Part shown: positions 16,428-49,680 of the stretch, one piece after another | How positions within the stretch are numbered: position 1 is the stretch's first letter | How the letters are laid out: each line of letters opens with the position of its first letter | Source of the DNA: an uncultured Gammaproteobacteria bacterium | GTDB lineage: Bacteria; Pseudomonadota; Gammaproteobacteria; GCA-001735895 | Reading direction: 5' to 3' | DNA length: 64,000 bases | Assembly (NCBI GenBank): GCA_964480635.1 | Contig: CAYZQE010000001.1 | Coordinates: 8,812 to 72,811, forward strand | The notes under the pieces: model-generated | Told to the model about the DNA's origin: nothing | The model's input: the letters and a program-made list of their open reading frames with translations, nothing else | Database searches by the model: none | Translations under genes and position numbers: made by a program

Positions 16428-16483
16428 TATTTAGTTGAATATCACATCAAAAGCTAAGCCCAACTAGGCTCAACATTTTTCGA

Positions 16484-17311: not shown

Positions 17312-17313
17312 GT

Positions 17314-17877: not shown

Positions 17878-17909
17878 TTTGTATCCTCATTATTATTTTT
17901 ATATCTGGC

Positions 17910-18818: not shown

Positions 18819-18820
18819 GA

Positions 18821-19312: not shown

Positions 19313-19318
19313 AATTTA

Positions 19319-21883: not shown

Positions 21884-21908
21884 TCTTTAAATTCCTTAGA
21901 GTTAATTA

Positions 21909-24641: not shown

Positions 24642-24674
24642 GAATTAAATCTCTCTCATCCTACTTATTATGAC

Positions 24675-27389: not shown

Positions 27390-27449
27390 TCTTCCACCTT
27401 TCTTACTTTAAGTTTTTACTTTTTTGTATTATATTTTCATGACTGAGTT

Positions 27450-27959: not shown

Positions 27960-27961
27960 TG

Positions 27962-30076
27962 TTATGCCGCCACATCAGTTTTATCGCTCTTCTTTTCAAG
28001 CTTTTTGTTCAGAGTTAAAATCCCGGGCATATCGATAATAAGCGCGACAGAACCATCACCTAAAATAGTGGCCCCTGAAAAACCTTCTATTTTTTTGTAA
28101 TTACTTTCTAATGATTTGATCACCACTTGCTGCTGCCCTAGTAATTCATCAACAAACAAACCTACGTGTTTGTTTTCAACTTCAACAACTACCAATAGCC
28201 CATCTTTTAGATCAACAGGTTTTTCTAGTTCAACACCAAAAATGTCATGCAGCTTTATAATGGGGACGTATTCTTCTCGTAGCTTGAATGTTTCTCCCTG
28301 CCCCCCAACCATATTGACCATATCAGGTTGTATTTGGATTGACTCTACAATTGAAATAATAGGGATAATGTAATTTTCATTACCAACAGAGACTGTTTGT
28401 CCATCGACAATTGCTAGGGTTAATGGCAAACGAATTCGCATTGTACTGCCTTTTCCTAACGCTGAATCAATCTCGATTGAGCCCCCAAGCTCTAAGATAT
28501 TTCGACGAACCACATCCATGCCAACACCACGGCCAGACACATCACTAACAACCGCAGCTGTTGAGAAGCCCGGCAAGAAAATCAATTCAAATATTTGACG
28601 ATCAGTTAAAATATCACCTTCGATAATAAGCCCCTTTTCGACTCCTTTTTTATATAAAACATCCTTATCCATACCTTTACCATCATCGATAATTTCGATA
28701 ACAATATTACCGCCTTGGTGATAGGCATTTAAATTTATTGTTCCTAACTCTTCTTTACCTGCTGCCACACGATCTTCTGGCATTTCAATACCATGATCTA
28801 AACTGTTACGCACAAGATGTACGAGAGGGTCACCAATTTTTTCAATAACTGTCTTGTCTACTTCAGTTGCCTCACCCGAAAGAATCAATTCTATCTTCTT
28901 GCCCATTTTTCCTGATAAATCACGAACCAAACGTGGAAAACGTGAAAAGGTAAAACTAATCGGCATCATTCGAACTTGCATCACGCTTTCTTGCAGCTCA
29001 CGTGAATTACGCTCTAACTGCATCAAACCATCGCGTAAACGGTCTATTTCAGCGACATCAATTGATCCTCTTTCTTCAATGTTTTCACCAATTAAACCTA
29101 GCATTGATTGAGTAATCACTAACTCACCCACCATATTGATCAAAGCATCAATTTTATCGGTATCTACTCTTATAGAGGCATTAGCTTGAGCTGCTGGTTT
29201 TTTACTTCCTCTTCGGTCATTCTTACGGCGATCACCACCTTTGGCCTTTTCACTGTCTGCACTATCACCATCTCTTCTTTGAGGAATGGGTAATTGTGAC
29301 TTTTCTGCCGGCTTCACCCCATCTGCTTGTGCATTGCCATCTTGTAATGCAATAATTTCTAAATCACAAAGGTCTTCAACCCAAGCAAAAATCTCACTGA
29401 GCACATCTTTATCTGCATCCGTTATTATTTTCAATTCCCAACTGATATAACTTTGTTCAGCATCGAGCATTTCAAAGGGCGGTATCGCATTTAAATCTGT
29501 TGTCAGCTCTACTTCACCTAGTGATGAAAGCTCTCTTATTAATGGTAATGGATCATTACCCGTATGAAAAATATCGCTGTTTGGCTTAAACTTTATCAAC
29601 CAACCTTGGCCAGGCGAGTCACCTGCCGTTACGGCTTTAGTAGGAGCGTTTGTTTCTTCTTTAGCCGCTAAATTTTCGCCAGCAGCTTCATTACCCAGTT
29701 CTTTTTCGAGCATTGCTTTATGCTCTTTAACACGTGCTTCGTCTGGGTCATCGCCTTCTTGCGCGGCTTCTAGCATTTCTCTTAAACAGTCGGTTGACTT
29801 TAATAGAAGGTCTGAATTTGCAACAGTAACATCACGCTTACCATCTCGCATTTCATCAAGAAGCGTTTCCATGACATGGGTAAACGAAGCGACTTCCATA
29901 AAGCCGAAAGTACCCGAACCACCCTTTATAGAATGAGCGGCTCTAAAAACACTATTAATAACCTCAGAATCAGCTTCACCTGGCTCTAAATCCATTAATC
30001 CGGTTTCCATAATTTCGATGCCTTCGAAACTTTCTTCAAAAAACACCTGATGAAACTGAGCCATATCTATCGACAT
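27962..30076 (-). CDS. cheA: chemotaxis histidine kinase CheA (P1-P5)
   Basis: It has a P1 HPt (FRAAHSIKGGSGTFGF), P3 dimerisation (IRVDTDKIDALINMVGELV), a P4 HATPase with G1/G2 boxes, and a P5 CheW-like domain. Confidence 0.9.
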   Translation of the reverse strand: MSIDMAQFHQVFFEESFEGIEIMETGLMDLEPGEADSEVINSVFRAAHSIKGGSGTFGFMEVASFTHVMETLLDEMRDGKRDVTVANSDLLLKSTDCLREMLEAAQEGDDPDEARVKEHKAMLEKELGNEAAGENLAAKEETNAPTKAVTAGDSPGQGWLIKFKPNSDIFHTGNDPLPLIRELSSLGEVELTTDLNAIPPFEMLDAEQSYISWELKIITDADKDVLSEIFAWVEDLCDLEIIALQDGNAQADGVKPAEKSQLPIPQRRDGDSADSEKAKGGDRRKNDRRGSKKPAAQANASIRVDTDKIDALINMVGELVITQSMLGLIGENIEERGSIDVAEIDRLRDGLMQLERNSRELQESVMQVRMMPISFTFSRFPRLVRDLSGKMGKKIELILSGEATEVDKTVIEKIGDPLVHLVRNSLDHGIEMPEDRVAAGKEELGTINLNAYHQGGNIVIEIIDDGKGMDKDVLYKKGVEKGLIIEGDILTDRQIFELIFLPGFSTAAVVSDVSGRGVGMDVVRRNILELGGSIEIDSALGKGSTMRIRLPLTLAIVDGQTVSVGNENYIIPIISIVESIQIQPDMVNMVGGQGETFKLREEYVPIIKLHDIFGVELEKPVDLKDGLLVVVEVENKHVGLFVDELLGQQQVVIKSLESNYKKIEGFSGATILGDGSVALIIDMPGILTLNKKLEKKSDKTDVAA

Positions 30077-32200: not shown

Positions 32201-32245
32201 ATAATTTTTAAACTTTTTAAACTTTTTAAACTTTTTAAACTTTAA
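32201..32245. repeat. 9-bp tandem repeat (taaactttt, about 4.5 copies) in the MCP-like/STAS intergenic region
   Basis: It is read directly from the sequence at 32201-32245, immediately 3' of the MCP-like stop and upstream of the STAS gene. Confidence 0.7.
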
Positions 32246-32249
32246 TTCC

Positions 32250-33458
32250 TTAAAATAATTCTATTTCACCTTCTTCCATCGAACTCTGTCCAACTGCCTT
32301 GTTAATAGGCGTAGACCATTCTTGCTTTAATACTTCTATGCTAGATTTAAATTCATTTAAAACTAATAAGGTATCTAGATCATTTACATTTGTATTTTCT
32401 TGTAACACATTCATTTGAGACTTTAAGTTTTGTACGAGATCATGCAAACGATTCACATGTTCGCCGCTATATTGAACAACTTGAGAAACGACATCTTCAA
32501 ATTGTAATGACAGTATAGCCACGCCGACTGATTTATTAATATCATCTGTTACTGCTGAAATTTTCTTTAGTTCCTCAGCTACATGTTCATCGTATCGACC
32601 AATATCATCTAACATTGAATCTACTCTATCTTTTGAAGATATTGTCTCTGTCATATCTCGAGACGCCATAGCCGTTACTAACGCTTTAGCCTCAGAAATA
32701 CCTGCTTTAGATTTAACAATAACAGTGCGTATCTTTTCACTAAAGTCATTTGAGTTTTTAGACAGATTACGTACTTCATCAGCAACAACAGCAAAGCCTC
32801 GACCCGCCTCACCCGCTCTAGCCGCTTCAATCGCTGCATTTAATGCCAATAAATTAGTTTGTTGGGCAATTTTACTCACATCATCAAGCAGCTTAAACGC
32901 CTGATCCATTTCTTTAGCAATATCATCAATGGTGTAAACCATTTTCATACTGCTTTGGCTGGTGGATAACAGCATTTGAATAAAGTGCTGCAATAGCTGA
33001 TTGGTCTCATCAACAAAACCACGCATATTAAAACTACCATTATCTTCATCTGGCTCAACCATGCCTAGAACTAGAGCGCCTTGAAGCTGGCTAAACTGAT
33101 TTAAATCTGTAAAGCTCCCGCCTAACTTACCCGTGGCATCAAGAACAACCGTATTAATTTGAGTGAGTGAATCTTTAATCTCATTTGTTTGACCTTCAAC
33201 TAAGCTGTTTAAACCCAACAATAAATCAAATAGTTCTTTAATAACGACACTATGAACTTGATCTGAAGATTCAATATCACTTAGTTTCTCTTCTTCAGTA
33301 TTAAGACCCAATAGAACACCTATAAATGCCACTAGGAGCAAACCATCTAAAAGTTCAAACGAACTTAGTAAACGAATAATAATAATGCTAAATACAGTCA
33401 CTGCACTGATTGCCAATAAACGATGTTTTAGCACAAATTGTTTTGTTAATAATTTCAT
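32250..33458 (-). CDS. membrane-anchored MCP-like signalling protein (two N-terminal TM helices with essentially no periplasmic domain, plus an MA domain)
   Basis: It has the conserved MA hairpin tip [37 protein letters not shown]. It is 402 aa and ends ...EEGEIELF. Confidence 0.75.
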
Positions 33459-34255: not shown

Positions 34256-34618
34256 CTAACCCAAAGCGCGTTTTATCACTGACAGCAATTGGTCCGGATT
34301 AAAAGGCTTTACAATCCAACCAGTAGCTCCGGCATTTTTACCTGCCATTTTCTTATCTGCAGCTGATTCGGTTGTAAGCATTAATAAAGGAGTGAATTTA
34401 AAACTAGGTAGCTTTCTTAACTCTGCGATAAGAGATATACCATCCATATTTGGCATGTTTACATCCGTTATCACTAGATCAAAACTCTTTGTTTTCGCAA
34501 TATTTAATGCGACCAACCCATCTTCGGCATCAGTCACATCATAACCAGCACTTTTTAATGTAAATGAAACCATTTGTCTCATTGATGCTGAATCATCAAC
34601 AGCTAAAATTGTAGCCAT
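34256..34618 (-). CDS. single-domain response regulator (CheY-like receiver)
   Basis: It is 120 aa with a REC domain. Its residues include DD (ILAVDDS), the phospho-acceptor D (LVITDVNMP) and the T/K pair. Confidence 0.8.
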   Translation of the reverse strand: MATILAVDDSASMRQMVSFTLKSAGYDVTDAEDGLVALNIAKTKSFDLVITDVNMPNMDGISLIAELRKLPSFKFTPLLMLTTESAADKKMAGKNAGATGWIVKPFNPDQLLSVIKRALG

Positions 34619-34787
34619 TCTTCACTCCTAAATATTATATTAAATTATTGTTTAGCGACCTATCTTAAGCTGCCTTTTTCTTCTTCAATGAAGTATAGCG
34701 GCATATTTAAAAAATTCTTTAAAATATTAAAGATTAAATTGTATTGAATTTTAAATATGACAATTTATGACACATTGTAAAAGTATT

Positions 34788-35783
34788 TTAACCGACAATA
34801 ATTCTGTTTTTTCCCGCTTTTTTCGCCTTATAGAGCGCTTTATCTGCGCGTTTAAATGACCTCTTAAAATCATCTCCAGCCAAGACCATCGTCACACCAA
34901 TACTCACACTGATTTCAATACTTGGATCACAATCAGGTAAGGTTAAATTATCAATGCCTAATCTCACTCGCTCTGCCACGTCTAACGCACCTTGCATATC
35001 CGTTTGAGGTAACGCACTGACGAATTCATCCCCCCCATAACGATAGAGTAAATCTGTATTTCTCACCGCTTCTTGTAAAACAACCCCAACATCTTGCAGC
35101 ACTCGATCTCCGGCATCATGGCCGCATAAATCATTGATAACTTTAAATCCATCTAAATCCATAACCATCATTGCCATAGAGTGTTCATGCCTTTTTACTA
35201 AGCCAATTTCTCTTGGCAAGAACTTTTCCATTGCCGTACGATTTCCTAAATGTGTCAGTGGATCGACATAAGCAGATTTTAGAGCTGTCTGATACATCAA
35301 TGCGTTTTTTACTGGATATACTAAACCACACAGATAATCTTCAAACTCACAGACTTCATTAGTCGAAAATCGACTATTTCGATAGATCGTTATTTCACCT
35401 AATAACTGCTCGCGTAATGTAATGCGATAATGCAAGCTAAACCGATCGACATTCCCCATGCTCACTGGTGCATCAACCCTCTCTGAAATAAACCGATAGG
35501 CATTATGGGGAATTAAATTCTGGATTTCACCCGAAAAAGAGCTGATCACATCAGTGATTTCTAAAGTTCGTGATAGCAAATCAGACAATTGTAGTATTTT
35601 TATAAACTTTTTATCACTGGTTACAAGTTCACTTTTACGCGAGTCTAAAGCAATAACTTGAGCATTTCGTGATTTGCTTGTCACATTTAATATCGTCGGT
35701 GTATTCATAAGCTCTATACCTAAATTCAATAATATCTTTAAACATGCGAAAGTCATGCCAATAAAAAAATCATAGGGAATCAA
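34788..35783 (-). CDS. GGDEF-domain diguanylate cyclase with an uncharacterised N-terminal sensory region
   Basis: It has a 'RYGGDEF' active-site motif. The N-terminal start is uncertain because an internal ATG is possible. Confidence 0.8.
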   Translation of the reverse strand: MIPYDFFIGMTFACLKILLNLGIELMNTPTILNVTSKSRNAQVIALDSRKSELVTSDKKFIKILQLSDLLSRTLEITDVISSFSGEIQNLIPHNAYRFISERVDAPVSMGNVDRFSLHYRITLREQLLGEITIYRNSRFSTNEVCEFEDYLCGLVYPVKNALMYQTALKSAYVDPLTHLGNRTAMEKFLPREIGLVKRHEHSMAMMVMDLDGFKVINDLCGHDAGDRVLQDVGVVLQEAVRNTDLLYRYGGDEFVSALPQTDMQGALDVAERVRLGIDNLTLPDCDPSIEISVSIGVTMVLAGDDFKRSFKRADKALYKAKKAGKNRIIVG

Positions 35784-35986
35784 TGAGTTACAAAAATAAA
35801 TATAATCACACTCAATAAACAGTCATGTTTTTGACTAAAAATAGGTGCTTTTATCGGAATTTGTAAAATATTTAAGAAAAAAAGGAATGTACATGTTTTT
35901 TAGTCAATTTATTGGCTCATAAAATTAGCCCTTACTTTAGTCTCCTCTAAGGTTTATATTAACTATGATGATTAAGCGGAAATATT

Positions 35987-37639
35987 TTGCCCACCATGGA
36001 AATTAAGGCCACAAACACTGCCACCTTGAATTCTAAAACTGTTCATAAGCTACAAGATTTACTCATTAAGTTTGAACACAATTTATTTAAAGCAATTATT
36101 AGCGCTAAAGTTAGCAATGAAACATTTGTCATCAATAGCAAGGCAGGTTCATTACAAATTAGCAGCAAACTTAATCTACAAATTGGCGATGAACTCACAT
36201 TAAATGTTAAGCTCGATAAAGCGTCACAGACTTTGTCTTTAAATATTTCTAAAATTGAGCGCCCTGTTGTTAAAACCCAGAATCTACAAACTTTAAACGC
36301 AACGCCGATCACTATTAGTCATAAAAATGATATAAAGCAGTTACCCCATACTCAAGAGCACTTCGTTGCGAAGATTATCAGTATCGATAAAAAACATATT
36401 TATCTTCAAGATTTAAAAGGACAAAATTTTTCGGTAACGAAAGCAAACCTTAGTCATCTTTCATCTAATTTTCAAAAAGGTGAGCACGCCATCATCAAGT
36501 GGACATCCCCCGAAAAGGCAGAAATTCGGCCTATCGTTAAAGAGCATTTATTACACCAAGTCCAACGTCAATTATTACCTCAGCAAACAAGCAACCAACA
36601 AACTCATCAACGTTTAACCCAAGCCGCCTTTAAGCTATTTCAGGCCATCAATAACGAGATCATAAGCAAGAACAACGCATCGACAACATCTGCTGCTTCA
36701 GTCCACGCCAAACCAACCGAGAGACAGGCACCTTTGGCTATACTTAAGGCTCAACAAACGCATAGTACTGTAAAAGAAAATATCGATGTGAAGCTTGGCA
36801 ACCTCAAAGAAGCTATAAAACCAAGCCCATCAGTTGCACCACAGGTTTCAAAACCAAGCAATAGTAACAACGTCATTATTAAGCATACTCAAGATACTAT
36901 TGAGACCATTAAAATTGATTTACAACGTCTTTTAACGACACATAAAATCACACCCAATCTACTTAAGTCAGAGACTATTCTAAAGCTTCTAACTGACTTA
37001 AATATCATTAGTAAATCAATCCTCCATGACTCAAGCAATAAAACATTTATTCACAAATTATCTCTTATTACCCAGTCTATCGACCTTGTTTTAAATGCAT
37101 CAGACGATATGAAAAAGGGCGCCAAGCAAAATAGTAACGATGAATTATTGAGTGAACTATTAAAAACAACTTTAAAGGATGCTAAACAAACGATTGAATT
37201 GACTATTCATAAAATGCTTTTTCAAACGGCTTCATCCAAATTAAACCAAGAAATAAACTCTTCATTATTAATCAATACCCAAATTCCTTTTGAAATAGAC
37301 AAAAAAACGAAAGATATCGCTTTAAAAATCAAACAACATAAAAATGATAGCCATGATAAAGAGGATACTTGGGAAATTCATTTATCCTTAGAAATGGGTT
37401 TATTAGGATTAATTAGCACAAAGATTATCCTTAAAGATAGTTTAGATGTCTCTGTTACCTTTTGGGCTGAACTGTATAAAACCAAACAACTCATCGATGA
37501 AAAAAAGAATGTTTTTCATCGGCAAATGACTAAAGCTGGGTTTAACTTAAGTCACATCAATATATTTCTTGGAAAAAAAATTGATGAGGTGCCACCTATT
37601 CAAATTAGCGACAAACAATTTATTGATATCAATGTCTAA
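35987..37639 (+). CDS. Q/T/K-rich protein, possibly a flagellar hook-length control (FliK)-like protein
   Basis: It is 550 aa and low-complexity. I recall similar 'FliK-like' genes paired with FlhB-C-like genes next to cheW in Vibrio and Shewanella. I cannot confirm the family from the sequence alone. Confidence 0.35.
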   Translation: MPTMEIKATNTATLNSKTVHKLQDLLIKFEHNLFKAIISAKVSNETFVINSKAGSLQISSKLNLQIGDELTLNVKLDKASQTLSLNISKIERPVVKTQNLQTLNATPITISHKNDIKQLPHTQEHFVAKIISIDKKHIYLQDLKGQNFSVTKANLSHLSSNFQKGEHAIIKWTSPEKAEIRPIVKEHLLHQVQRQLLPQQTSNQQTHQRLTQAAFKLFQAINNEIISKNNASTTSAASVHAKPTERQAPLAILKAQQTHSTVKENIDVKLGNLKEAIKPSPSVAPQVSKPSNSNNVIIKHTQDTIETIKIDLQRLLTTHKITPNLLKSETILKLLTDLNIISKSILHDSSNKTFIHKLSLITQSIDLVLNASDDMKKGAKQNSNDELLSELLKTTLKDAKQTIELTIHKMLFQTASSKLNQEINSSLLINTQIPFEIDKKTKDIALKIKQHKNDSHDKEDTWEIHLSLEMGLLGLISTKIILKDSLDVSVTFWAELYKTKQLIDEKKNVFHRQMTKAGFNLSHINIFLGKKIDEVPPIQISDKQFIDINV

Positions 37640-37934
37640 TTCAAATTCATCGACCAAACAAAATTTTGCCATTGCATTAAGTTACGATGGCGATGCCCCA
37701 CCTATCGTCACTGCGACTGGTCAAAATGATACTGCGGAAGAAATTTTAAAGCTTGCCGAAGAGGCTGATGTACCCATTTTTGAAGATCATGAATTGGCTA
37801 CTTTATTAAATGACCTAGAATTGGGCGAGCATATCCCAAAACCACTTTATAGGATCATTGCTGAAATACTGAGCTTTGCTTATATGCTCTCAGGAAAACA
37901 TAAAAGCTTTATGGACAAACTGAAGCGCCCATAG
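37632..37934 (+). CDS. FlhB C-terminal-domain-like protein (EscU/YscU/FlhB_C family paralogue)
   Basis: 'KQNFAIALSYDGDAPPIVTATGQND...IPKPLYRIIAEIL' aligns with this window's FlhB C-terminus 'NPTHFAVALQYNPDNMAVPKVLAKGKD...IPAHLFFAVAQIL'. The start at 37632 overlaps the upstream ORF by 8 nt. Confidence 0.7.
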   Translation: MSNSNSSTKQNFAIALSYDGDAPPIVTATGQNDTAEEILKLAEEADVPIFEDHELATLLNDLELGEHIPKPLYRIIAEILSFAYMLSGKHKSFMDKLKRP

Positions 37935-38063
37935 CTCAATGATTGGGCTATGTTAAGGAGACACTGATTAAGTGTTTATTTCAAGAAAAGCAATGAGCTG
38001 ATTAAGGTCAAATCATTGTCGGCTAGACTAATACTGTTCACCCTAAGCCTTATCTTAAAATAA

Positions 38064-38540
38064 TTAAAACCCTGACATATCGCCCCATTCGGATTCAGAT
38101 AGTAGTTTATTTAAATCAACCAAAATTAATAATTGCTCTCCTCTGCTAACAACACCATCAATATACTTAGAGGTGTCATCATTACCAACATTAGGAGCCG
38201 TTTCAATTTCTGAGCGTTTAATATCGACAACTTCAGCAACGCTGTCTACCAATATGCCTATCGTATGTGTACTAGCCTCTATAACGATGATACGTGAAAG
38301 ATCATCATCCTCTTTAGACATTAAACCAAAACGAGTACGTGCATCGATAACACTGACCACATTACCACGTAAATTAATAATGCCAATCACATAATGTGGT
38401 GCACCAGGAACTGGTGCTACTTCTGTTTCTCGCAGTACTTCTTGCACTTGCATAACATTAATGCCGTAAATCTCACCTTCTAAGGTAAAAGTCACACATT
38501 GAAAATCGTCTTTTGTATCATCGTTGTCTTGTTGAGCCAT
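38064..38540 (-). CDS. cheW: chemotaxis coupling protein CheW (flagellar cluster)
   Basis: It is 158 aa with a CheW-like domain. Confidence 0.9.
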   Translation of the reverse strand: MAQQDNDDTKDDFQCVTFTLEGEIYGINVMQVQEVLRETEVAPVPGAPHYVIGIINLRGNVVSVIDARTRFGLMSKEDDDLSRIIVIEASTHTIGILVDSVAEVVDIKRSEIETAPNVGNDDTSKYIDGVVSRGEQLLILVDLNKLLSESEWGDMSGF

Positions 38541-38574
38541 TTAATGCCTCCAAAGTTTATTGTTGTAATTAAAA

Positions 38575-38622
38575 CTCTTTGCGTAAAACTAAATTTCAAG
38601 CGTTTTAGCTTTATGCAAAGAG
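38575..38622. other. hairpin in the parP-cheW intergenic region / cheW 5' leader
   Basis: The arms ctctttgc and gcaaagag flank an approximately 30-nt loop. Confidence 0.4.
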
Positions 38623-38646
38623 TTCATCTAATAAGCGATATTTAAT

Positions 38647-38673
38647 ATATCGGCAAAACTACCTATAAATTAA
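38647..38673 (-). promoter_or_regulatory. candidate sigma-28 (FliA) promoter upstream of cheW
   Basis: The minus strand reads ttaattta-N11-gccgatat, compared with the TAAAGTTT-N11-GCCGATAA consensus. The -10 matches 7 of 8 positions and the -35 is weak. Confidence 0.25.
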
Positions 38674-38729
38674 GCACATTTTAAAAAAAATGCTTAATTA
38701 TTTTCTATTTCTTTTAAAAATCATAACTA

Positions 38730-39482
38730 TTAGTCAGTCATTCTTTCAATATCATCTGTTTTTATAAGTTTTTTTCGAATGGCTTCGGGGTTTAATACCA
38801 GTGCTAACGTTTTTTTTATCGTCCCTAAAGACAAGCGATCCTTCTCTCCTGTATGCCATTTAATATCATCTTCATTTAACGTCACTACGTCCAATAATTC
38901 ATCACAAGAAATAGCCCAGTCATTATCTTTAAAAACTAATAAATGACTTGGGTTAAAGTCATCATTATCCTTGCCTTGTACTATACCCATTAATAATGCC
39001 GCCGTATCAGCCACGCGCACATTACTATCCCTATGTTTCAATAAGCCTTTAAAATAATTAGGGCTATACGGTAATTGAGTTAAGCGATTGCCAAAAGGCA
39101 CAACGCTACCCATTCGTATTAAGGGAATAGAGAGTAAATGCCCTTTCACTTTAAACATTAGGCACTGAACTGGGAAGTTTAACTCTTCTTTTAGTGTTCG
39201 TTCTTGAGCTTTCTTTTTTTGTAGCTTTATTGATGTCTTTTCTAATTCAGTCTCATTGTCATTAACCGATACTTCTGCCGTAATAACAACATCATCTTTA
39301 GTCAACTGCTTTAACGCCGTTAAAGGCGTCTCTAAAACATGAATATTATGGTTTTCATTATTGGCAACAAATTTAACATTTGGCTCGGCAACCGGTTCTG
39401 TCGCCTCTTGTAATAAATGATCAAGATAGCTTTCTACCGCTGTGTTAGCATCAAGCAATTTGCTGGGTTTTATTTTTTTCAT
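38730..39482 (-). CDS. parP: ParP-like protein (C-terminal CheW-like domain) of the ParC/ParP chemotaxis-array positioning system
   Basis: It is 250 aa with a CheW-like C-terminal region. It lies between the ParA-like parC and cheW, as in Vibrio cluster II. Confidence 0.55.
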   Translation of the reverse strand: MKKIKPSKLLDANTAVESYLDHLLQEATEPVAEPNVKFVANNENHNIHVLETPLTALKQLTKDDVVITAEVSVNDNETELEKTSIKLQKKKAQERTLKEELNFPVQCLMFKVKGHLLSIPLIRMGSVVPFGNRLTQLPYSPNYFKGLLKHRDSNVRVADTAALLMGIVQGKDNDDFNPSHLLVFKDNDWAISCDELLDVVTLNEDDIKWHTGEKDRLSLGTIKKTLALVLNPEAIRKKLIKTDDIERMTD

Positions 39483-40260
39483 CTTCTGTTCGCTGCTGTA
39501 TGCCTAATAAAAAATCAAGCAATTGACGGTACGCAATACTACCTCGCGCTTTAGGGTCATACATAGATAATGGCTTGCCAACCTTGCTTGCGTCTCTAAA
39601 TTTTGTATCTATTGGAATGACAGAACCCCATACATTAAAACGATATAGCTCTTTCATTTGCTTTAATGCATCAATAGATGCTCTGGTTCTTTTATCGTAC
39701 ATGGTTGGGATAATCATATAAGGCGTTTTAGTATGCAATGATTTTTCAACCATCTCTAAAGTATGAGTCATACGCTCTAAACCTTTTAACGATAAGAAGT
39801 CTGTTTGCGCTGGAATTAATAACTGATCGCAAGCAGCTAAGGCATTAATCATTAAAATACCTAACATAGGCGGGCAATCAATCACACAATAAGCAAAACG
39901 TGATGAGACCGCTTTTATTGCCTTAGCAACAACTAAACCCTTACCCTGCCCTACGCCCATTTGGCGATCTAAGGTCGCTAATGCAGTCGATGCCGCAAAT
40001 AAATAGGTGTTTTTAATATTCGTTGGTAGTAACAATTTTGCGATATCAACTTGGGATTCAGTTGGGTTTGCAAACAGATTATAAATCCCTGTTTCCATAT
40101 CATCTGGATCATATCCTAAATAACTTGTTAACGAGCCATGAGGATCTAAATCAACCAATAAGGTTCGTTCATCGCCTTGGCATAAATGCCCCGCTAATGT
40201 AACAGCAGTCGTTGTTTTACCAACACCACCTTTTTGATTGATAATTGCCCAAGTTTTCAT
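39451..40260 (-). CDS. parC: ParA-family ATPase ParC-like (chemotaxis array positioning)
   Basis: It has a deviant Walker A ([17 protein letters not shown]). It is 269 aa and sits between cheA and parP. Confidence 0.7.
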   Translation of the reverse strand: MKTWAIINQKGGVGKTTTAVTLAGHLCQGDERTLLVDLDPHGSLTSYLGYDPDDMETGIYNLFANPTESQVDIAKLLLPTNIKNTYLFAASTALATLDRQMGVGQGKGLVVAKAIKAVSSRFAYCVIDCPPMLGILMINALAACDQLLIPAQTDFLSLKGLERMTHTLEMVEKSLHTKTPYMIIPTMYDKRTRASIDALKQMKELYRFNVWGSVIPIDTKFRDASKVGKPLSMYDPKARGSIAYRQLLDFLLGIQQRTEDEKNKTQQIA

Positions 40261-40342
40261 AATTTTTAATCAAATAACAAATCATTATTAAGGGAACCTC
40301 TGACTAAGTCCATAATTTTTATCTAAGCCAAATTTTACTCAG

Positions 40343-40498
40343 CTAGGCGTAGCATTGCAACGTCATCTAGATACCGTAAGATGCTAGAACGACGTTGAGT
40401 GAAATTTGGCAACGACCCGAAGGGCGAGTTATCAAGCCACTCTCTCCGTCGTTCCAACTTTCACTAAGGACTCGTCATTAGCTTCAAGTTGCGCCTAG
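40343..40498. other. structured non-coding element (about 155 nt) bounded by inverted repeats ctaggcg / cgcctag with nested internal hairpins; candidate REP/MITE-like element or small RNA
   Basis: The pairs read from the sequence are ctaggcg...gcaac with gttgcgcctag, caacgtc with gacgttg, tctag with ctaga, and gaacgacg with cgtcgttc. No ORF is present. Confidence 0.45.
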
Positions 40499-40550
40499 GA
40501 TAGAATGGCTTGATAGATCGTAAAAGTTTATGGAGTTAATCAGGATCTCC

Positions 40551-42608
40551 TTAAGTGTAAACTTTCAATAAGCCAGGGACATCTAAAATGATAGCAATGT
40601 TACCATCACCTGTAATTGTTGAACCGGCAAGCCCTGGTAATCCATGCAGCATCGCACCTAAAGGTTTGATAACGACTTCTTCTTGACCAATAACTTGATC
40701 TACAACAAACCCGACGGATGAACTCCCCACTTGAACCATAATCACCTGAGGGTCTCCCTCATATTCAAGATGAGTTTCATTCTTCCCTAACAACCATTTT
40801 CTTAAATAGAAAATAGGTGGCGCTTTACCTCGATTAAGCACCACTTCTTTACCATCTATAATACTCGTTTTTTTAGAGCTTAATTCAAAAATTTCATTGA
40901 CGATAGACAAAGGTAATGCAAATTTACGATCCCCTAGCTGAACCATTAATGTAGGTAAAATAGCTAATGTTAATGGGACTTTTATCGTTAAAACAGTGCC
41001 TTTACCAAGAGCAGATTCAATATCAATGGTGCCATTTAATTGAGTAATCTTAGTTTTAACAACATCCATACCCACGCCACGACCAGAGACATCTGATATC
41101 GCTTCTTTTGTGGACAAGCCGGGCAAGAAGATAAGGTCAAAACAGCCTTTATCGTCTAGGCGTGAGGCCGTTTCAGCATCCATTAAACCTTTCTCAATCA
41201 CTTTATTACGCAACACTTCAGGATCCATCCCAGCGCCATCATCGGTGATTGATAAAAGGATATGATCACCTTCTTGTTTAGCCGCTAAAATAACCTTTCC
41301 TTCTTGAGATTTTCCTGCTTTTTCGCGTATCGAAGGAATTTCAACGCCATGGTCAACTGAATTTCTAACTAGATGTACTAATGGATCGGCTAATGCCTCG
41401 ACTAAATTTTTATCTAAATCGGTTTCTTCACCAACCAATTCTAAACTAATTTCTTTTTTTAAGGTTCTTGCCAAGTCACGAACCACTCGAGGAAAACGAC
41501 CAAACACTTTTTTAACGGGTTGCATTCGTGTTTTCATGACCGCCGTTTGTAAATCAGCGGTAACAACATCTAAGTTTGATATTGCTTTATGAACGCGCTC
41601 ATCATCAATCGTTGCTCTTAATGTCGTCAAGCGATTACGTGCCAGCACGAGCTCTCCAACTAAATTCATAATGTCATCAAGCCGAGCAGTATCGACACGA
41701 ACAGTTGTTTCACCTTTTAACGCACCAGAAGGTTCTTTTTTAGCCGGTGCTACTTTAGCTTTAATGGCTGGTTTCTTGATTACTGGATTAGGTTTCTTTT
41801 CAACTGGAGCAGCTTTGGCTGCCTCTTTAGCCTTTAGGGCTGGGCCTTTTCCAGCCCCATGCATATCATCAAGTAAACTTTCAAATTCGTCAGATGACAT
41901 TGCATCACCTGAATTTTCTGGCGGAGGTGTTGCAGTTGGTTTTTTTGCAGTGCTCTCGACCGAAGATTTTGGCGCTGTACCCTTGCCATGAATATCATCT
42001 AATAGTGATTCAAATTCATCATCAGATATATCGTTACCTTGAGCGGGCGCTGGAGTTTCTTTAACTACTGGTGCGCCGGCTGATCCATGCAGAGCATCTA
42101 AAAGCGATTCAAATTCATCATCAGATATATCATCCCCACCACCAACATGTTCGACAACTGGCGGTGCTGTCGCTTCTGACTCTTGCGCAGCAGTAGCGTC
42201 GGGCTCTGCAGGGGCATCACCTGGGGTCTGCATATCAATTAATTCTTGTAATAGCGCAGGGTCGGCTGGCGTAGGGTCTTCACCAGAGCGAATTTCCCCA
42301 AACATTTTAGTCACCTCATCCAAGACGCGTAAAAACGCATCCATTTTTTCGCTGTCTAAAGTAATCTCATTATTACGCAATAAATTGAAAACATCTTCAG
42401 ATTTATGGCATACCTCAACCAAGCTGGTTAAGGCTAAAAAACTGCCACCACCTTTTATTGTATGAAATCCTCTAAAGATCGTATTTAGCAAATCAGCATC
42501 ATCAGGAGATTGCTCTAAATCAACCAATTGCTCATTTAGCTCTTCTAAAATCTCACCTGCTTCAACTAAAAAGTCTTGCAGAATTTCATCTTCTAGATCT
42601 ATTGCCAT
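40551..42608 (-). CDS. cheA: chemotaxis histidine kinase CheA (flagellar cluster); the P2 region is replaced by three repeats of a FliM-N-terminus-like peptide and a KPAA-rich basic linker
   Basis: It has a P1 HPt (FRGFHTIKGGGSF), P3 (VRVDTARLDDIMNLVGELV), P4 and P5. The linker repeats are DISDDEFESLLDALHG, DISDDEFESLLDDIHG and AMSSDEFESLLDDMHG. Confidence 0.9.
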   Translation of the reverse strand: MAIDLEDEILQDFLVEAGEILEELNEQLVDLEQSPDDADLLNTIFRGFHTIKGGGSFLALTSLVEVCHKSEDVFNLLRNNEITLDSEKMDAFLRVLDEVTKMFGEIRSGEDPTPADPALLQELIDMQTPGDAPAEPDATAAQESEATAPPVVEHVGGGDDISDDEFESLLDALHGSAGAPVVKETPAPAQGNDISDDEFESLLDDIHGKGTAPKSSVESTAKKPTATPPPENSGDAMSSDEFESLLDDMHGAGKGPALKAKEAAKAAPVEKKPNPVIKKPAIKAKVAPAKKEPSGALKGETTVRVDTARLDDIMNLVGELVLARNRLTTLRATIDDERVHKAISNLDVVTADLQTAVMKTRMQPVKKVFGRFPRVVRDLARTLKKEISLELVGEETDLDKNLVEALADPLVHLVRNSVDHGVEIPSIREKAGKSQEGKVILAAKQEGDHILLSITDDGAGMDPEVLRNKVIEKGLMDAETASRLDDKGCFDLIFLPGLSTKEAISDVSGRGVGMDVVKTKITQLNGTIDIESALGKGTVLTIKVPLTLAILPTLMVQLGDRKFALPLSIVNEIFELSSKKTSIIDGKEVVLNRGKAPPIFYLRKWLLGKNETHLEYEGDPQVIMVQVGSSSVGFVVDQVIGQEEVVIKPLGAMLHGLPGLAGSTITGDGNIAIILDVPGLLKVYT

Positions 42609-42633
42609 TTTACTAACCTTTTACCCTATTTTT

Positions 42634-43380
42634 TTAAAAACCCAGACTTGCTAATAAATCATCAACATCATCTTGATTTGTTGCTACATCGTCTTTACTC
42701 GCTGATGGTAACTGTGGACCATGCGCCTTAGTACCATCTTTCGGCTGATCTTTAGAATCCTTTAGCTTTGCACCAGAAATAGCGACTAATCTGACTAATT
42801 TTTCTTCGACTTCCTTAACCATGGTAATGACTTGTTTAATCATTTGCCCCGTTAAGTCCTGATAATCTTGAGCCAACATGATTTCAGTCATGGATTGATT
42901 GATTTTTGCAGTCTCATTAGGAATAGAAGTCAAAAATTCATCAATGTCGTCACTTAGAACAACAAACTCTTCTTTTGATAGCTCTCTATTACGAAATTGC
43001 TCCCAACGATTTTTAATCTTACTGGCATGATCAGAAAAATTTCCGACAACGGTCATTGTTTCTTCAGCGCCATTCATTGTTTTGTGGGCGGCTTCGTTGG
43101 TTTTTTCGACAATAAAATTTAATCGCTCTGTCGCATCGGGTATTTCATTTTCGGCTAATTCTGCCACTCGATCATCGTCGCTAAAAGCATTTATCGATTC
43201 GTGTATTTCACGCGTTAATTTTCCTAGTTCTTGAAATAAAGACGACTCTCTTAACGTCGTTAACTCACCGACCAAACGATTGACTTCATCAGTATCTTTT
43301 TTATCAATGGCTTTATTCAAGCCTTGAATACGCTCTAAATAATCATCACTTAAAAAATCATCACTGGATTCCGTATTCAT
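42634..43380 (-). CDS. cheZ: CheY-P phosphatase CheZ
   Basis: It has the active-site region '[16 protein letters not shown]' and the C-terminal CheY-binding tail '...[10 protein letters not shown]'. It is 248 aa. Confidence 0.85.
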
Positions 43381-43763
43381 CCATCTATCCTCTCAAATAT
43401 TTTTTCTATTTTTTCTTTAAGAGTGATGGCAGTGAACGGCTTCACAACATATCCGTTTACGCCTGCTTGTGCGGCTTCAATAATTTGTTCACGCTTAGCC
43501 TCTGCTGTAACCAACAAAATTGGCATTGTAGAAAGCTTATCGTCAGCCCTTACTTTTTTTAACAACGTCAAGCCATCCATACCAGGCATATTCCAATCAG
43601 TGACTAAAAAATCATAGTTTCCTGATTGTAATAAAGGCCATGCCGTTTGCCCATCATCAGCTTCTGATGTGTTATTGAACCCCAAATCACGTAGAAGATT
43701 CTTTATGATTCGGCGCATTGTCGAAAAATCATCAACAATTAGTATCTTCATATTTTTATTCAT
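43377..43763 (-). CDS. cheY: chemotaxis response regulator CheY (the start is probably the internal Met, [12 protein letters not shown])
   Basis: Its REC domain carries [12 protein letters not shown]...D...[11 protein letters not shown]...K. Its stop overlaps the cheZ start. Confidence 0.9.
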
Positions 43764-43814
43764 GCAACCTCCATAGCATTGCATTGTGTTTTACAGCAAC
43801 TGCGCTAAATTAAC

Positions 43815-43841
43815 TTAACGGCAGTTTTTGCAAAGAGTTAA
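43815..43841 (-). promoter_or_regulatory. candidate sigma-28 promoter upstream of cheY-cheZ-cheA
   Basis: The minus strand reads ttaactct-N11-gccgttaa. The -10 matches GCCGATAA at 7 of 8 positions. It lies about 50 nt upstream of the cheY start. Confidence 0.25.
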
Positions 43842-44099
43842 ATTATTTTTTTAATAAACCTTTTTTATTAAACCAATTACTTGGTTTTCAACCCTAAGAA
43901 TAGACTATAAATTTTATTTTGCAGAAGGAATCTTGAATCATAGCCATAATTTTTTATGGCGCCAAATAATCAATTACTCAGCATCTTTTATGGCGTTATT
44001 AAGAGAAGGGTAAATACAAAAAAGATATTGAAATCATTCTTAATTAGTTATGACATAGTAAGCTAATAAGCCATTTATTCCGTTATAAAGCGTTATAAA

Positions 44100-44825
44100 T
44101 TATTCTTCACTCCAGTGGCTCATTCTTGATTTTATTCGCAATAAAGCTTGGCCATGAATTTGACAAACTCGAGACTCACTAATATCTAACACGCTTCCAA
44201 TTTCACGTAAATTTAACTCTTCATCATAGTACAATGACATCACCATTTGTTCGCGATCAGGCAAGGCCTTAATGACATCAGCTAATGAGCTTTGAAAGCT
44301 TTGTTTGCTGACAGATTCAAAAGGCGTTGGGCTAGAATCCGTTGCCTTTATAACGGCATGATCGTCGTCATCCATGGTATCAATACTAAATATTTTCGAC
44401 GTCGTTGAATCAACTAATATCTTGTGATACTCACTCAGTTCCATCCCCAAATATTCGGCAACTTCGGCATCTTTTGCATCTTCACCTGATTTATTTTCTA
44501 TCTCTTTGATGGCCAGAGCGACTTCTCTGGACTTTCTATGAACGGAACGTGGCGTCCAATCTAAACGACGTATTTCATCAATCATTGCCCCTCGAATGCG
44601 AATACTGGCGAAGGTTTCAAAGCTAGCACCGTGACCCATTGCATAATTGCTAGAGGCTTCTAATAGGCCTAGCATTCCCGCTTGAATTAAATCATCGATT
44701 TGAATATTAGGAGGGAGTCGATTTATTAGGTGAAATGCGATTCTTTTAACCAAAGCAACATGTTCTGTCACCAGATTGTTGCTAGCAAGCTGTTCCACTT
44801 GTGCATACATCGCATGACCATTCAT
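44100..44825 (-). CDS. fliA: flagellar sigma factor FliA (sigma-28); the start is assigned to the Met whose ATG overlaps the flhG stop by 1 nt
   Basis: Regions 2 and 4 match E. coli FliA (DDLIQAGMLGLLEA...IRGAMIDEIRRLDWTPRSV...LYYDEELNLREIGSVLDISESRVCQIH). Confidence 0.85.
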   Translation of the reverse strand: MNGHAMYAQVEQLASNNLVTEHVALVKRIAFHLINRLPPNIQIDDLIQAGMLGLLEASSNYAMGHGASFETFASIRIRGAMIDEIRRLDWTPRSVHRKSREVALAIKEIENKSGEDAKDAEVAEYLGMELSEYHKILVDSTTSKIFSIDTMDDDDHAVIKATDSSPTPFESVSKQSFQSSLADVIKALPDREQMVMSLYYDEELNLREIGSVLDISESRVCQIHGQALLRIKSRMSHWSEE

Positions 44826-45688
44826 TAGCTCTGCCCTCCGCTCTGGCTGTTGTAATTGATCAGCCTCTCGATAAAAAACTCCAGATGTCCTTCTATCGTT
44901 TTTGGCACCACCCATTTCTGTGCTTTCTTCGCTATCTGGCGAAATGCCATCGATGAGGGACTTCGGGGGTAGATGTCTGTTACACACTTTTGTTTTTGCA
45001 CCGCTTTTTTAAGGTATTCGTCATAAGGTATAGCACCCATATAATCTAATGCAACTTCTAGATATTTATCAGAGACTTTAGCAAGCTTCATATACAGCTC
45101 TCTGCCCTGCTGCATAGTTTGTGCTTGATTGGCTAAAACATGCATACGCTGGATACCAAAGTCTTTGTTCAACACTTTAATCATGGCATAGGCATCAGTA
45201 ATTGAAGCCGGCTCATCGCAGACCACAACTATCACTTCTTTAGCCGCACGAACAAAACTAATAACCGCATCGTTTAAACCCGCCGCTGTATCGACAATTA
45301 AGGTATCAACTGGTCGTGTTAATTCTGAAAACGCTTGAATAATACCCATGTTTTGTGCCGGCGTAAGCTCTGCCATTTTGCGTACGCCTGAAGACGCGGG
45401 GATAATACTGATGCCCGCAGGTCCAGAAAGAATAATATCGTCTAAGCTGCATTCACCGTCTAAAACGTGCAATAAATTTTGTTTGGGTGACAAGCCTAAT
45501 AAAATATCTAAATTAGCAAGTCCCATATCGGCATCCATGACCAACACATTTTCACCCGCTTGAGACAAACTCACTGCTAGGTTTAAACTAACATTGCTTT
45601 TTCCCACCCCACCTTTACCGCTGGTTACCGCAATAACACGAACTGGTTTTGGCTTATTCATACTTCTAATACCTTGAGCCTGATCCAT
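44825..45688 (-). CDS. flhG: flagellar number regulator FlhG (MinD-like ATPase, FleN)
   Basis: It has a deviant Walker A (VTSGKGGVGKSNVS). It is 287 aa and sits between flhF and fliA. Confidence 0.8.
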   Translation of the reverse strand: MDQAQGIRSMNKPKPVRVIAVTSGKGGVGKSNVSLNLAVSLSQAGENVLVMDADMGLANLDILLGLSPKQNLLHVLDGECSLDDIILSGPAGISIIPASSGVRKMAELTPAQNMGIIQAFSELTRPVDTLIVDTAAGLNDAVISFVRAAKEVIVVVCDEPASITDAYAMIKVLNKDFGIQRMHVLANQAQTMQQGRELYMKLAKVSDKYLEVALDYMGAIPYDEYLKKAVQKQKCVTDIYPRSPSSMAFRQIAKKAQKWVVPKTIEGHLEFFIERLINYNSQSGGQS

Positions 45689-47391: not shown

Positions 47392-47565
47392 ATCTCATCT
47401 CTTTATTAAGGAGCCTCTGATTAAGTTAATAAAATTTGAGCGCAGAAAAAACTGTCGCTATTTTCGTCGAAATGAGCCGTAATAGTCACTCTATTGCTGC
47501 GATTTTCGGTGAAAATATCGGCAGTTTTAGCAAGTTCAAAATTATTGAGCTTGTTCAGAGACTCC

Positions 47566-49680
47566 TTAAGTCTTGCTACCCCCTTGAACTCCAGCTTGAG
47601 GGTTGCCAACACTGGCTATGACCTTAATTTGCTTATCTTCTGGTATCTCTTCATAACTCAAAATATGCAAGCCTTGAATACCATGCCTTAACATGCGAGC
47701 CAAAAAGGTGCGTAATGCTTGAGACACTAACAACACGGCTGGTTCGCCTTTGGCTTGCTGCTTTTGCGTCGCTTCATTCAATGAGCTATGCAATAACTGA
47801 GCAATGCCAGGCTCTAAAGCCATGGCGACACCATCAGTGCCTTGAATATTCTTTTGCAATAACTGTTCCAATGTTGGGTGAAGCGTCATAATAGATAGCT
47901 CTGAAGCCATTCCAAAGATGTTTTGAACAATTTGACGCCCTAAATTGACGCGTACAAATGACGTTAAAATGGCAGGTTCTTGACTTTTATTGCCCTGCTC
48001 TGCCAAAGATTCGGCGATAGAGCGCAAATCTCTAATGGACACCTGCTCTTGTAATAAATTTTGAAACACCTTAACAATGACATTCAGCGCTAAAGGCTTA
48101 GGCGTGAGCTCTTCAACTAATTTTGGCGCGGTGCGCTTAAGCACGTCCATTAATTTTTGCACTTCTTCATGGCCTATTAATTCATGCGCATTATCTTGTA
48201 ACATTTGGCTTAAATGGGTTGCAATAACGGTGGAGGCATCCACCACGGTGTAACCCATCACTTGGGCTTGATCTCTTAAAGCAGGATCAATCCAAACCGC
48301 ATCTAAACCAAAGGCAGGATCTTTGGTGGGAATGCCATTTAGCTCGCCATAGACTGTGCCTGGGTTTATGGCCATGTCTTGCCCAGGTTGTATTTCAGCT
48401 TCGCCCATCGGTACGCCTAACAAACTTAAACGATAGGTATTGGCAGGCAAATCTAAATTATCTCGAATATGCACGGACTGAACTAAAAACCCCAGTTCTT
48501 GTGACAACTTTTTACGCACTCCTTTAATGCGCGTCATTAACTCGCCGCCTTGTTTTTTATCCACCAATGAAATTAAGCCATAGCCTACTTCTAAACCAAT
48601 CATGTCCACAGTTTCAACATCATCCCAACTGAGCTCTTTTTGCCCAGGCTCAACGGGTAAGACTTCGGCTTGTTTCACTTCTGTTTCTTGAAGCACGGCT
48701 TGTTTATTTTTTTGCACCACCGACCAAGCTACAGCACCTGCAATAGCCGCAATGGTTAAGAATGAAAACGTTGGCATACCTGGGATAATACCCATAAAAG
48801 CAATAATGCTTGCCGCCACAATGATTGACCTTGGGTCTTTAAACATTTGCGTAAACACTTGTGATGACATTTTTTCTGATGCTGAAACGCGGGTCACGAT
48901 AATCGCAGTAGCCACTGATAAAATAAGCGATGGTATTTGCGCAACTAAACCATCACCAATGGTTAGGATGGTATAGTTTTCTACCGCTACCGACATGCTT
49001 AGGTCGTGCTGTAACATACCAATAGCGATGCCACCGATAATATTGATGAATAAAATTAAGATGCCTGCAATCGCATCACCACGAACAAACTTACTCGCGC
49101 CATCCATCGAGCCATAAAAATCAGCTTCTTGGGCAACTTCTGTACGACGCAACCTGGCTTCGTCTTGGGTGCATAAACCGGCATTTAAATCGGCATCTAT
49201 AGCCATTTGTTTGCCGGGCATGGCATCTAAGGTAAACCGCGCGCTAACTTCTGAGACACGCCCTGCACCTTTTGTAACCACCACAAAGTTAATAATAACT
49301 AAGATCGCAAACACCACTAAACCTACTGCGTAATTACCACCAATAACAAAACCACCAAACGCTTCGATGACCTTGCCAGCGGCTGCTCCACCGGTATGGC
49401 CTTCTAGCAAAACAACTCGCGTTGAGGCAATGTTTAGCGCTAAACGCAACAGGGTCGCAATTAATATAATGGTTGGGAAAACCGTAAAGTCGAGTGGCCT
49501 TAAGGCATACACAGACACTAACAACACCACCAAACTAAAAGCAATATTGAAGGTGAAAAACAAATCTAATAACAATGGTGGCATGGGTAGCACCACCATT
49601 GATAGCATCACAATTAATAACAGTGGCGCTCCCAAGCCGGCAAACTTTATATTTTTTAATTGCTCTAATGCATTACCCAT
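47566..49680 (-). CDS. flhA: flagellar type III export apparatus protein FlhA
   Basis: It is 704 aa with an N-terminal 8-TM domain plus a cytoplasmic domain, which is the typical FlhA architecture. Confidence 0.9.
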   Translation of the reverse strand: MGNALEQLKNIKFAGLGAPLLLIVMLSMVVLPMPPLLLDLFFTFNIAFSLVVLLVSVYALRPLDFTVFPTIILIATLLRLALNIASTRVVLLEGHTGGAAAGKVIEAFGGFVIGGNYAVGLVVFAILVIINFVVVTKGAGRVSEVSARFTLDAMPGKQMAIDADLNAGLCTQDEARLRRTEVAQEADFYGSMDGASKFVRGDAIAGILILFINIIGGIAIGMLQHDLSMSVAVENYTILTIGDGLVAQIPSLILSVATAIIVTRVSASEKMSSQVFTQMFKDPRSIIVAASIIAFMGIIPGMPTFSFLTIAAIAGAVAWSVVQKNKQAVLQETEVKQAEVLPVEPGQKELSWDDVETVDMIGLEVGYGLISLVDKKQGGELMTRIKGVRKKLSQELGFLVQSVHIRDNLDLPANTYRLSLLGVPMGEAEIQPGQDMAINPGTVYGELNGIPTKDPAFGLDAVWIDPALRDQAQVMGYTVVDASTVIATHLSQMLQDNAHELIGHEEVQKLMDVLKRTAPKLVEELTPKPLALNVIVKVFQNLLQEQVSIRDLRSIAESLAEQGNKSQEPAILTSFVRVNLGRQIVQNIFGMASELSIMTLHPTLEQLLQKNIQGTDGVAMALEPGIAQLLHSSLNEATQKQQAKGEPAVLLVSQALRTFLARMLRHGIQGLHILSYEEIPEDKQIKVIASVGNPQAGVQGGSKT

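Follow-up and report, generated by a model that had tools for sequence, protein, structure and literature searches.

We analyzed the flagellar chemotaxis operon of an uncultured Gammaproteobacteria bacterium (assembly GCA_964480635.1, contig CAYZQE010000001.1), in which 290 nucleotides (nt) of non-coding DNA separate cheA from parC (40261-40550). Coordinates refer to the 64,000-nt stretch of that contig that was studied, hereafter the window, unless a related locus (designated by an L-number) is named. An initial annotation, made from the sequence alone, gave the gene order as cheY-cheZ-cheA-[290 nt]-parC-parP-cheW, and the Pfam assignments listed below bear out this order, with all of the genes on the minus strand.

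44100-44987, minus strand: fliA (Pfam)
43377-43784, minus strand: cheY (Pfam)
42634-43380, minus strand: cheZ (Pfam)
40551-42608, minus strand: cheA, the gene 5' of the gap (Pfam Hpt, H-kinase_dim, HATPase_c and CheW)
39451-40260, minus strand: parC, encoding a ParA-like ATPase, the gene 3' of the gap (Pfam AAA_31/CbiA/ParA)
38730-39482, minus strand: parP, encoding a CheW-like protein (Pfam)
38064-38540, minus strand: cheW (Pfam)

The gap has stop codons in all six frames, and its longest open reading frame (ORF) spans 40 amino acids (aa) from a TTG start. In our judgment, the gap very probably represents a recent, strain-level insertion of an IS5-type MITE (miniature inverted-repeat transposable element) on the TTAA of the cheA stop codon. 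The inserted unit, annotated here as element A, and the features that delimit it are the following.

40292-40550, minus strand: element A, a 259-nt non-coding MITE, an insertion relative to all relatives, with a homologue in L003
40523-40550, minus strand: left terminal inverted repeat, degenerate in the window, GGAGATCCTGATTAACTCCATAAACTTT
40292-40319, minus strand: right terminal inverted repeat, reverse complement GGGAACCTCTGACTAAGTCCATAATTTT
40551-40554, minus strand: upstream TTAA copy of the target-site duplication, whose TAA is the cheA stop codon
40288-40291, minus strand: downstream TTAA copy of the target-site duplication, read from the sequence
40261-40287, minus strand: native cheA-parC spacer, alignable with those of L003 and L005 (12-27 nt)

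Alignment of the junction with related loci places all of the extra DNA directly after the cheA stop codon, in the arrangement ...ACACTTAA / GGAGATCC ... GGTTCCC / TTAATAATGATTTG...ATG, so that the left end of element A (GGAGATCC...) adjoins the stop. Removal of the element together with one TTAA yields ACTTAATAATGATTT, which aligns without gaps to ACATAGTAATGGTTT of L003. The native spacer is intact 3' of the insertion and carries the translation-initiation region of parC. The terminal inverted repeats are imperfect and ∼28 nt long; if the duplication is instead read as CTTAA, element A spans 40293-40550. The initial annotation had described a ∼155-nt structured unit within the gap. Its listed inverted repeats were all recovered by a repeat search, namely CTAGGCG/CGCCTAG (40343-40349/40492-40498), CAACGTC/GACGTTG, and GAACGACG../..CGTCGTTC, but the CTAGGCG/CGCCTAG pair that was taken as the boundary is internal to the real 259-nt unit. 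The same search found longer outer arms that the annotation had not used (40300-40320 and 40523-40543), which are 81% complementary. The 156-nt CTAG...CTAG interior was also considered as a second element nested within a shorter MITE, a tentative candidate, since the interior is without convincing terminal repeats of its own.

To place the junction in an evolutionary context, syntenic loci were retrieved through ParC and FlhA homologues, giving ten related loci from eight lineages. For the loci that hold parC, the ParC identity to the window is 93% (L003/L020 and L004), 91% (L005/L006), 88% (L024), 86% (L025), 78% (L014/L015), 76% (L016/L017), 71% (L022), and 70% (L023). In 10/10 of these loci cheA is followed directly by parC at a distance of 9-79 nt, with neither cheB nor the element between them. 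Element A is therefore an insertion relative to L003, L005, L004, and L006, for which the junction was aligned, and relative to all other relatives.

Homologous copies of element A and of its termini were found at other loci, both within the window and in relatives. An A-type homologue lies in a different spacer, between fliA and cheY, in L003 (2302-2601) and again in L020. The L003 copy is 300 nt long and 76% identical over 293 columns (blastn E 1e-67; nhmmer E 1e-93 / 1e-111), and its extra 42 nt are internal, in the loop of hairpin domain 1 (described below). When the window was scanned with the terminus pattern TTAAGGAGNCTCTGAYTAAG, allowing up to three mismatches, five sites were obtained against 0.02 expected: both ends of the cheA-parC element, 47406, 47569, and 37953. 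A gapless scan for pairs of TTAA plus terminal repeat recovers the element bounded by 47406 and 47569, element B, and misses element A because of an indel in the left end of A. The additional family members of the window are listed here.

47410-47565, minus strand: sister element B, 156 nt, between the flhA stop and the flhF start (terminus scan, fold)
37957-38055, minus strand: one-ended remnant C, in the spacer between cheW and a flhB-like gene (terminus scan, spacer length)
43925-44099, minus strand: probable (tentative) decayed, 5'-truncated remnant in the fliA-cheY spacer (syntenic alignment with the L003 copy)

Element B has termini of the same type as A and a different interior. It is flanked by TTAA at 47406-47409 and 47566-47569, the flhA stop codon again lies inside a TTAA, and the flhA-flhF spacer of relatives measures 11-34 nt. 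Two B-type copies were found in relatives. The copy in L020 (2123-2277; 80% identity, E 4e-32) sits on the stop-codon TTAA of a DUF4266 gene, in the DUF4266/DUF3570 spacer, with TTAA/TTAA flanks. The copy at about 16443-16617 of L018 (blastn match 16452-16553; 73.5% identity, E 5e-12) has CTAA/TTGA flanks. The surroundings of this last copy (L018 15376-18919; NCBI GCA_054046365.1, a close relative with FlhA 93% identical) contain fliA without the cheY-cheZ-cheA genes that would follow it; after fliA come a GerE-type response regulator and a large gene, both on the opposite strand, as well as the B-type copy, which is enclosed in a predicted 90-aa 'ORF'. Judged from this gene order, the L018 locus is rearranged, and the rearrangement lies beside a MITE.

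Less complete members were also detected. Remnant C retains one intact family terminus, TTAAGGAGACACTGATTAAG at 37953-37972 (plus strand), while its other end is unrecognizable. The convergent spacer that holds it measures 129 nt in the window versus 20-28 nt in L003 and L005. A solo terminus, AACCAGAGACTCCTTAAG, occupies this place in L005, which suggests that an ancient insertion at 37953-38063 has since been largely deleted. The sequence at 43925-44099 aligns collinearly to the right half of the element in L003, and 5/500 shuffles reach the observed local-alignment score; tentatively, it is a probable remnant of the fliA-cheY copy, which L003 and L020 have in intact form. A mosaic partial element, D, runs from L003 11322 to the contig end, begins exactly at the TTAA of the stop codon of a GGDEF gene, and carries an A-type hairpin module at L003 11382-11425; it is also present after the GGDEF gene in L004. 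In element D (L003 11322-11550 / L004 6180-6311), both the left end and the subterminal segment are of the B type; the A-type hairpin module comes next, with further GC-rich hairpins (CCACGCCC-TTCG-GGCGTGG) after it. Modules thus appear to shuffle between family members, like the mosaics of the BIME or ERIC type. The A-type members are the cheA-parC copy of the window, the fliA-cheY copy of L003/L020, and the partial element D, and the B-type members are the flhA-flhF copy of the window and the copies in L020 and L018. Equivalent termini are present on all family members. By these matches, the flagellar/chemotaxis region holds at least two to four members of the family, element A included.

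Element A accordingly has the features by which MITEs are recognized, namely small size, no coding capacity, terminal repeats, a target-site duplication whose site is empty in relatives, and copies at other loci, and of the origins floated in the initial annotation, the 'REP/MITE-like' one holds in the form of a MITE. The family appears to be new. A 19-mer terminus word searched against 185,579 species genomes gave one chance match, in a Cyclobacteriaceae metagenome-assembled genome, and an 18-mer terminus word searched against JGI metagenomes gave six matches that are limited to the 18-20-nt word. An interior 23-mer had 0 matches among viral contigs, and blastn in distant mode found no match among PLSDB plasmids and INPHARED phages. 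Based on the lack of a match in Rfam, phage and plasmid records, GTDB species genomes, and JGI metagenomes (ISfinder lies outside this set), the family is probably undescribed. It is new to the databases searched, and mechanistically it is an ordinary MITE.

The termini of the family point to the kind of transposon from which it derives. The ends of IS5 were read from an annotated Escherichia coli copy (L026; 1195 bp, 'IS5 family transposase'), with the left end GGAAGGTGCGAATAAG, the right end (reverse complement) GGAAGGTGCGAACAAGTCC, and the end consensus GGAAGGTGCGAA(T/C)AAG(TCC). The family termini are identical to IS5 at 10-13 of the first 17 positions, and the B terminus B20_left, GGAAGCTCTGAGCAAGTCC, matches the IS5 right end at 15/19 positions. 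As background, 14 of the 127,966 17-mers of the window reach at least 12/17 against the IS5 ends. It should be noted that both ends of element A align to the IS5 ends only with a 1-nt offset. IS5 makes 4-bp duplications of the form 5'-YTAR-3', TTAA included (PMC5009759), and the TTAA that flanks A, B, and the L020 copy of B fits YTAR. Since the termini are IS5-like and the TTAA duplication fits YTAR, the most economical reading is a MITE mobilized by an IS5-family transposase. The likeness to the IS5 group is in the 4-bp duplication fitting 5'-YTAR-3' (PMC5009759) and in termini that begin GGAAG.T..GA.(C/T)AAGTCC, whereas the family elements differ in being without a transposase gene, in their length of 156-300 nt versus 1195 bp, and in their unrelated interior, and no cognate full-length insertion sequence (IS) was found. 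The sole transposase gene seen in ∼200 kb of relatives is of the IS110 family (L016 12349-13353, an ENA relative). Inserted 3' of cheW, it is a further mobile element of this operon-end region and has no relation to the termini of the MITE. Nothing specific on TTAA duplications in bacterial MITEs was found in a literature search.

A short-read assembly that contains the same strain (Logan SRR9822617; contigs L001 and L002) provided a second view of the locus. L001 is identical to window 34545-40334, and L002 is identical over 6,885 nt, through cheA. At the same locus, L002 has the left end GGGCACCTCTGACTAAGTCCATAAGTTTT, of which 27/29 positions match the reverse complement of the right end, GGGAACCTCTGACTAAGTCCATAATTTTT; the left end of the window, GGAGATCCTGATTAACTCCATAAAC, is the more degenerate of the two. 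Differences between these alleles are confined to 40516-40548 (L002 6886-6920), next to a 6.9-kb flank that is 100% identical, and the Logan allele is a near-perfect terminal repeat. Such a pattern suggests gene conversion by another member of the family or else hypermutation at this site. The L002 contig breaks off at 40486 and L001 begins at 40334, both ∼30 nt (k-1) inside the region common with the window, which is how contigs are expected to behave when other paths of the assembly graph share the sequence, as for a repeat. Six Logan contig ends lie inside family elements: the start of L001, the start and end of L002, the start and end of L021, and the end of L004.

Several observations weigh against an IS5-type MITE inserted by transposition. 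Compared without gaps over 40516-40548, the left end of the window departs at 19 positions from the Logan allele, which is otherwise identical, and simple transposition fails to explain this. The A-type copy of L003 is flanked by TTTA/TTAA, one mismatch off a perfect duplication. Uniqueness of the element, which the initial annotation had named as an argument against its own proposal, does not hold, because the family is dispersed; within the rest of the 64-kb window, though, blastn of the gap found no second A-type copy. No transposase bounded by family termini (of the GGRRNCTCTGAYTAAG type) was found in ∼200 kb of relatives, and the scans with terminus words gave chance matches alone and no autonomous IS with family termini. 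Lastly, CTTAA and a central TA are alternative readings of the duplication, which leaves some room for an IS630-type partner.

We also analyzed the gap as RNA. In the sense orientation it folds with -96.3 kcal/mol versus -65.1 ± 5.2 kcal/mol for dinucleotide shuffles (z = -5.96), and 0/200 shuffles fold as well. The ∼155-171-nt core emphasized by the initial annotation has a z of -2.4 in sense and -4.3 (-4.29) in antisense, element B a z of -6.19, and the L003 copy a z of -7.74. The window and L003 copies fold alike, with paired termini and a small CCC/GGG hairpin between the two domains listed here.

40425-40520, minus strand: long internal hairpin domain 1 (fold, repeat search), containing the CGCCTAG arm noted in the initial annotation
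40328-40409, minus strand: long internal hairpin domain 2 (fold, repeat search), with the CAACGTC/GACGTTG and TCTAG/CTAGA stems and the CTAGGCG arm; this is the A-type module that stands alone in element D of L003

Among 82 consensus pairs between the window and L003 copies, 0 are broken and one shows a double compensatory change. A test for RNA-level selection, in which G-U and A-C combinations at Watson-Crick pairs were counted with each copy as reference in turn, gave 10 versus 5 and was not significant; the asymmetry stems from one copy only, and G-U retention was therefore rejected as evidence of function. Because the antisense strand folds comparably and no significant G-U bias is present, the structure is as expected of a palindromic transposon, and there is no positive evidence for RNA-level selection on the fold. 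No terminator-like site was found on either strand of 40150-40700, and read-through into parC is thus expected. Two weak sigma-70-like hexamer pairs point toward parC (40360-40332 and 40312-40284), each with 9/12 matches in AT-rich DNA. The Rfam scan that had been proposed for the element (Rfam 15) returned no match at gathering threshold in the whole window, and a permissive scan of 40150-40650 gave as best result an unrelated lncRNA model (E = 3.1; 8.5 bits, where the gathering score is 50).

With this evidence in hand, other origins of the extra DNA can be weighed. Vibrio-type clusters hold cheB at the cheA-parC position, and the only cheB (14729-15775) and cheR (16484-17311) of the window sit, as the initial annotation stated, in a second che cluster, both of which speak for a deletion scar or pseudogene remnant from loss of cheB. 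The premise that cheB normally sits here fails for this clade: no relative down to 70% ParC identity has cheB at the junction, and the spacers there measure 9-79 nt. The extra DNA is, moreover, a precise insertion that has terminal inverted repeats and a target-site duplication at its borders and homologues at unrelated loci, and neither tblastn with the window's own CheB (best E = 7.5) nor six-frame translation finds a CheB remnant in the gap. We give the scar next to no probability; on these sequence comparisons it is already refuted by the empty sites. A repeat of the REP/BIME type mobilized by RAYT, or a palindromic element derived from IS200/IS605 (PATE), in place of a DDE-transposase MITE, would account for the highly palindromic, modular, and mosaic character of the family (D mixes B-type ends with an A-type hairpin) and for its location between genes within operons, features in which REP/BIME and element A are indeed alike. 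REP units, however, are 20-40 nt long, and both they and IS200/IS605 derivatives are without terminal inverted repeats and target duplications, whereas element A spans 259 nt, ends in 28-nt terminal repeats that resemble those of IS5, and is flanked by a 4-bp duplication, which makes such an origin very unlikely.

The remaining alternatives concern function at the RNA level, since the initial annotation had also suggested an attenuator, a processing site, or a small RNA. An independent small-RNA gene or known structured RNA class between cheA and parC would be in keeping with the stable fold and with the UUCG/UACG-type loop on the small central hairpin of both copies, yet no Rfam family reaches the gathering threshold, no terminator is present, and the element is not conserved at the locus; we regard this possibility as very unlikely, no more credible than a REP-type origin. 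An exapted element is a somewhat better candidate, and it would add to the MITE origin and not replace it. Under this explanation the co-transcribed hairpin would determine mRNA processing or stability within the operon, or would act as a promoter directed outward, and would uncouple parC-parP-cheW from cheY-cheZ-cheA. The very stable mRNA-sense fold, its shared architecture with no broken pairs, the sense orientation of 5/6 oriented copies relative to the upstream gene, and the two sigma-70-like hexamer pairs speak for it, as do precedents from other MITEs: ERIC RNA hairpins can change the stability of flanking mRNA via RNase E, and Correia hairpins are cut by RNase III, with some copies carrying promoters (PMC10969869). 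Set against these are the absence of the element from the junction in all ten relatives, and hence of any function conserved there, the non-significant G-U test, the single compensatory pair, an antisense core that folds about as well, as a DNA palindrome should, and the weakness of the promoter-like matches. Exaptation therefore seems unlikely to us, and because the element is missing from the junction in every relative, any mRNA-processing effect would be incidental and strain-specific.

Our working model for the IS5-type MITE is as follows. Element A would be 259 nt of non-coding DNA derived from an insertion sequence of the cut-and-paste kind, with the IS5 family as the most likely source. 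Acting in trans, a transposase would have recognized the ∼28-nt terminal inverted repeats (family consensus approximately GGRRNCTCTGAYTAAGTCCATAA) and inserted the element into the TTAA overlapping the cheA stop, duplicating those 4 bp. Because the TTAA is duplicated, the cheA stop codon is retained, and parC is still preceded by its native 27-nt leader. The 31-nt ancestral junction offers just two TTAA sites at which an insertion leaves the genes undisrupted, the stop-codon TTAA being one of them, and the element is probably tolerated because it entered at this gene-sparing site. The strong fold would come from the element's own architecture, paired terminal repeats and two long internal palindromic modules, and not from evolved operon regulation. 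Presumably a single transcript spans cheA, the element, and parC, with read-through of the element.

Insertion at stop codons recurs in the family. Of seven family insertions, four lie precisely at a TTAA that the upstream gene's stop codon overlaps; 5/6 oriented copies are sense to that gene, and the insertions lie inside tightly packed flagellar/chemotaxis operons. The B-type carries AAACTGCCGATA at 47516-47527 (minus strand), which with one mismatch equals a sigma-28 -10-like box at 43816-43827 (minus strand). This box (GCCGATAA type) sits in the conserved upstream region of cheY, and GCCGATAT is kept in the L020 copy of B. In a control for this motif, 5/100 shuffles give at least two matches, and the B-type AAACTGCCGATA could be a portable FliA-dependent promoter or could have arisen by chance. 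A broader proposal, that the family is a mobile intercistronic RNA module that shifts the relative expression of operon segments, with the B-type perhaps also delivering FliA-dependent promoters, strikes us as improbable, more so than exaptation of element A on its own.

Two well-known groups of MITEs resemble the family. ERIC/IRU, the 127-nt intergenic repeats of enterobacteria and Vibrio that are regarded as MITEs, are likewise imperfect palindromes in transcribed intra-operon spacers, with size variants that arise by internal insertions (for the present family, the 42-nt indel). Element A differs from ERIC in its length (259-300 nt) and its termini, and no sequence relationship was established. 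The Correia elements of Neisseria (NEMIS/CREE) are MITEs of ∼100-160 nt with ∼26-nt terminal repeats that, like element A, lie beside or between genes and are co-transcribed, as element A presumably is. In contrast to the TTAA of element A and its different lineage, their target duplication is TA, and a single genus holds hundreds of copies.

Elsewhere in the window, the second che cluster (14729-30076) contains cheA, two cheW genes, three genes for methyl-accepting chemotaxis proteins (MCPs), a gene for a STAS protein, cheR, cheD, and cheB. The cheB, cheR, and cheD genes of the window are confined to this cluster, which is syntenic in L014 too. An in-frame 63/126-nt repeat array lies at 18310-18581 within the STAS-domain ORF (17910-18818). 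A perfect 9-nt tandem repeat, TTTTTAAAC x 4.3, occupies 32205-32243 in the spacer upstream of an MCP gene (32250-33458). The flagellar che operon, in the order fliA-cheY-cheZ-cheA-parC-parP-cheW without cheB, is found clade-wide (window 38064-44987; L003, L005, L014, L016, L020, and L022-L025) and differs from the Vibrio and Pseudomonas arrangement.

These results bear on the annotation of the locus and on the biology of the clade. A false lead is removed, as the junction has neither a cheB scar nor a conserved riboregulator. Since cheA directly precedes parC in all ten loci, the cheB-less order is, as far as these sequences indicate, ancestral to a broad group of mostly uncultured Gammaproteobacteria and not a recent loss; it is a clade-wide trait of these uncultured marine-type bacteria. 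The family is characterized by its division into two size classes, by mosaic members, by ends that resemble IS5, and by duplication of TTAA, and its elements repeatedly break short-read assemblies of these genomes. It also illustrates how transposons may enter compact operons harmlessly at stop-codon TTAA sites. Should the hairpin RNA or the sigma-28-like motif be active, the family would, if this is true, provide a natural case of MITEs re-wiring a flagellar/chemotaxis operon.

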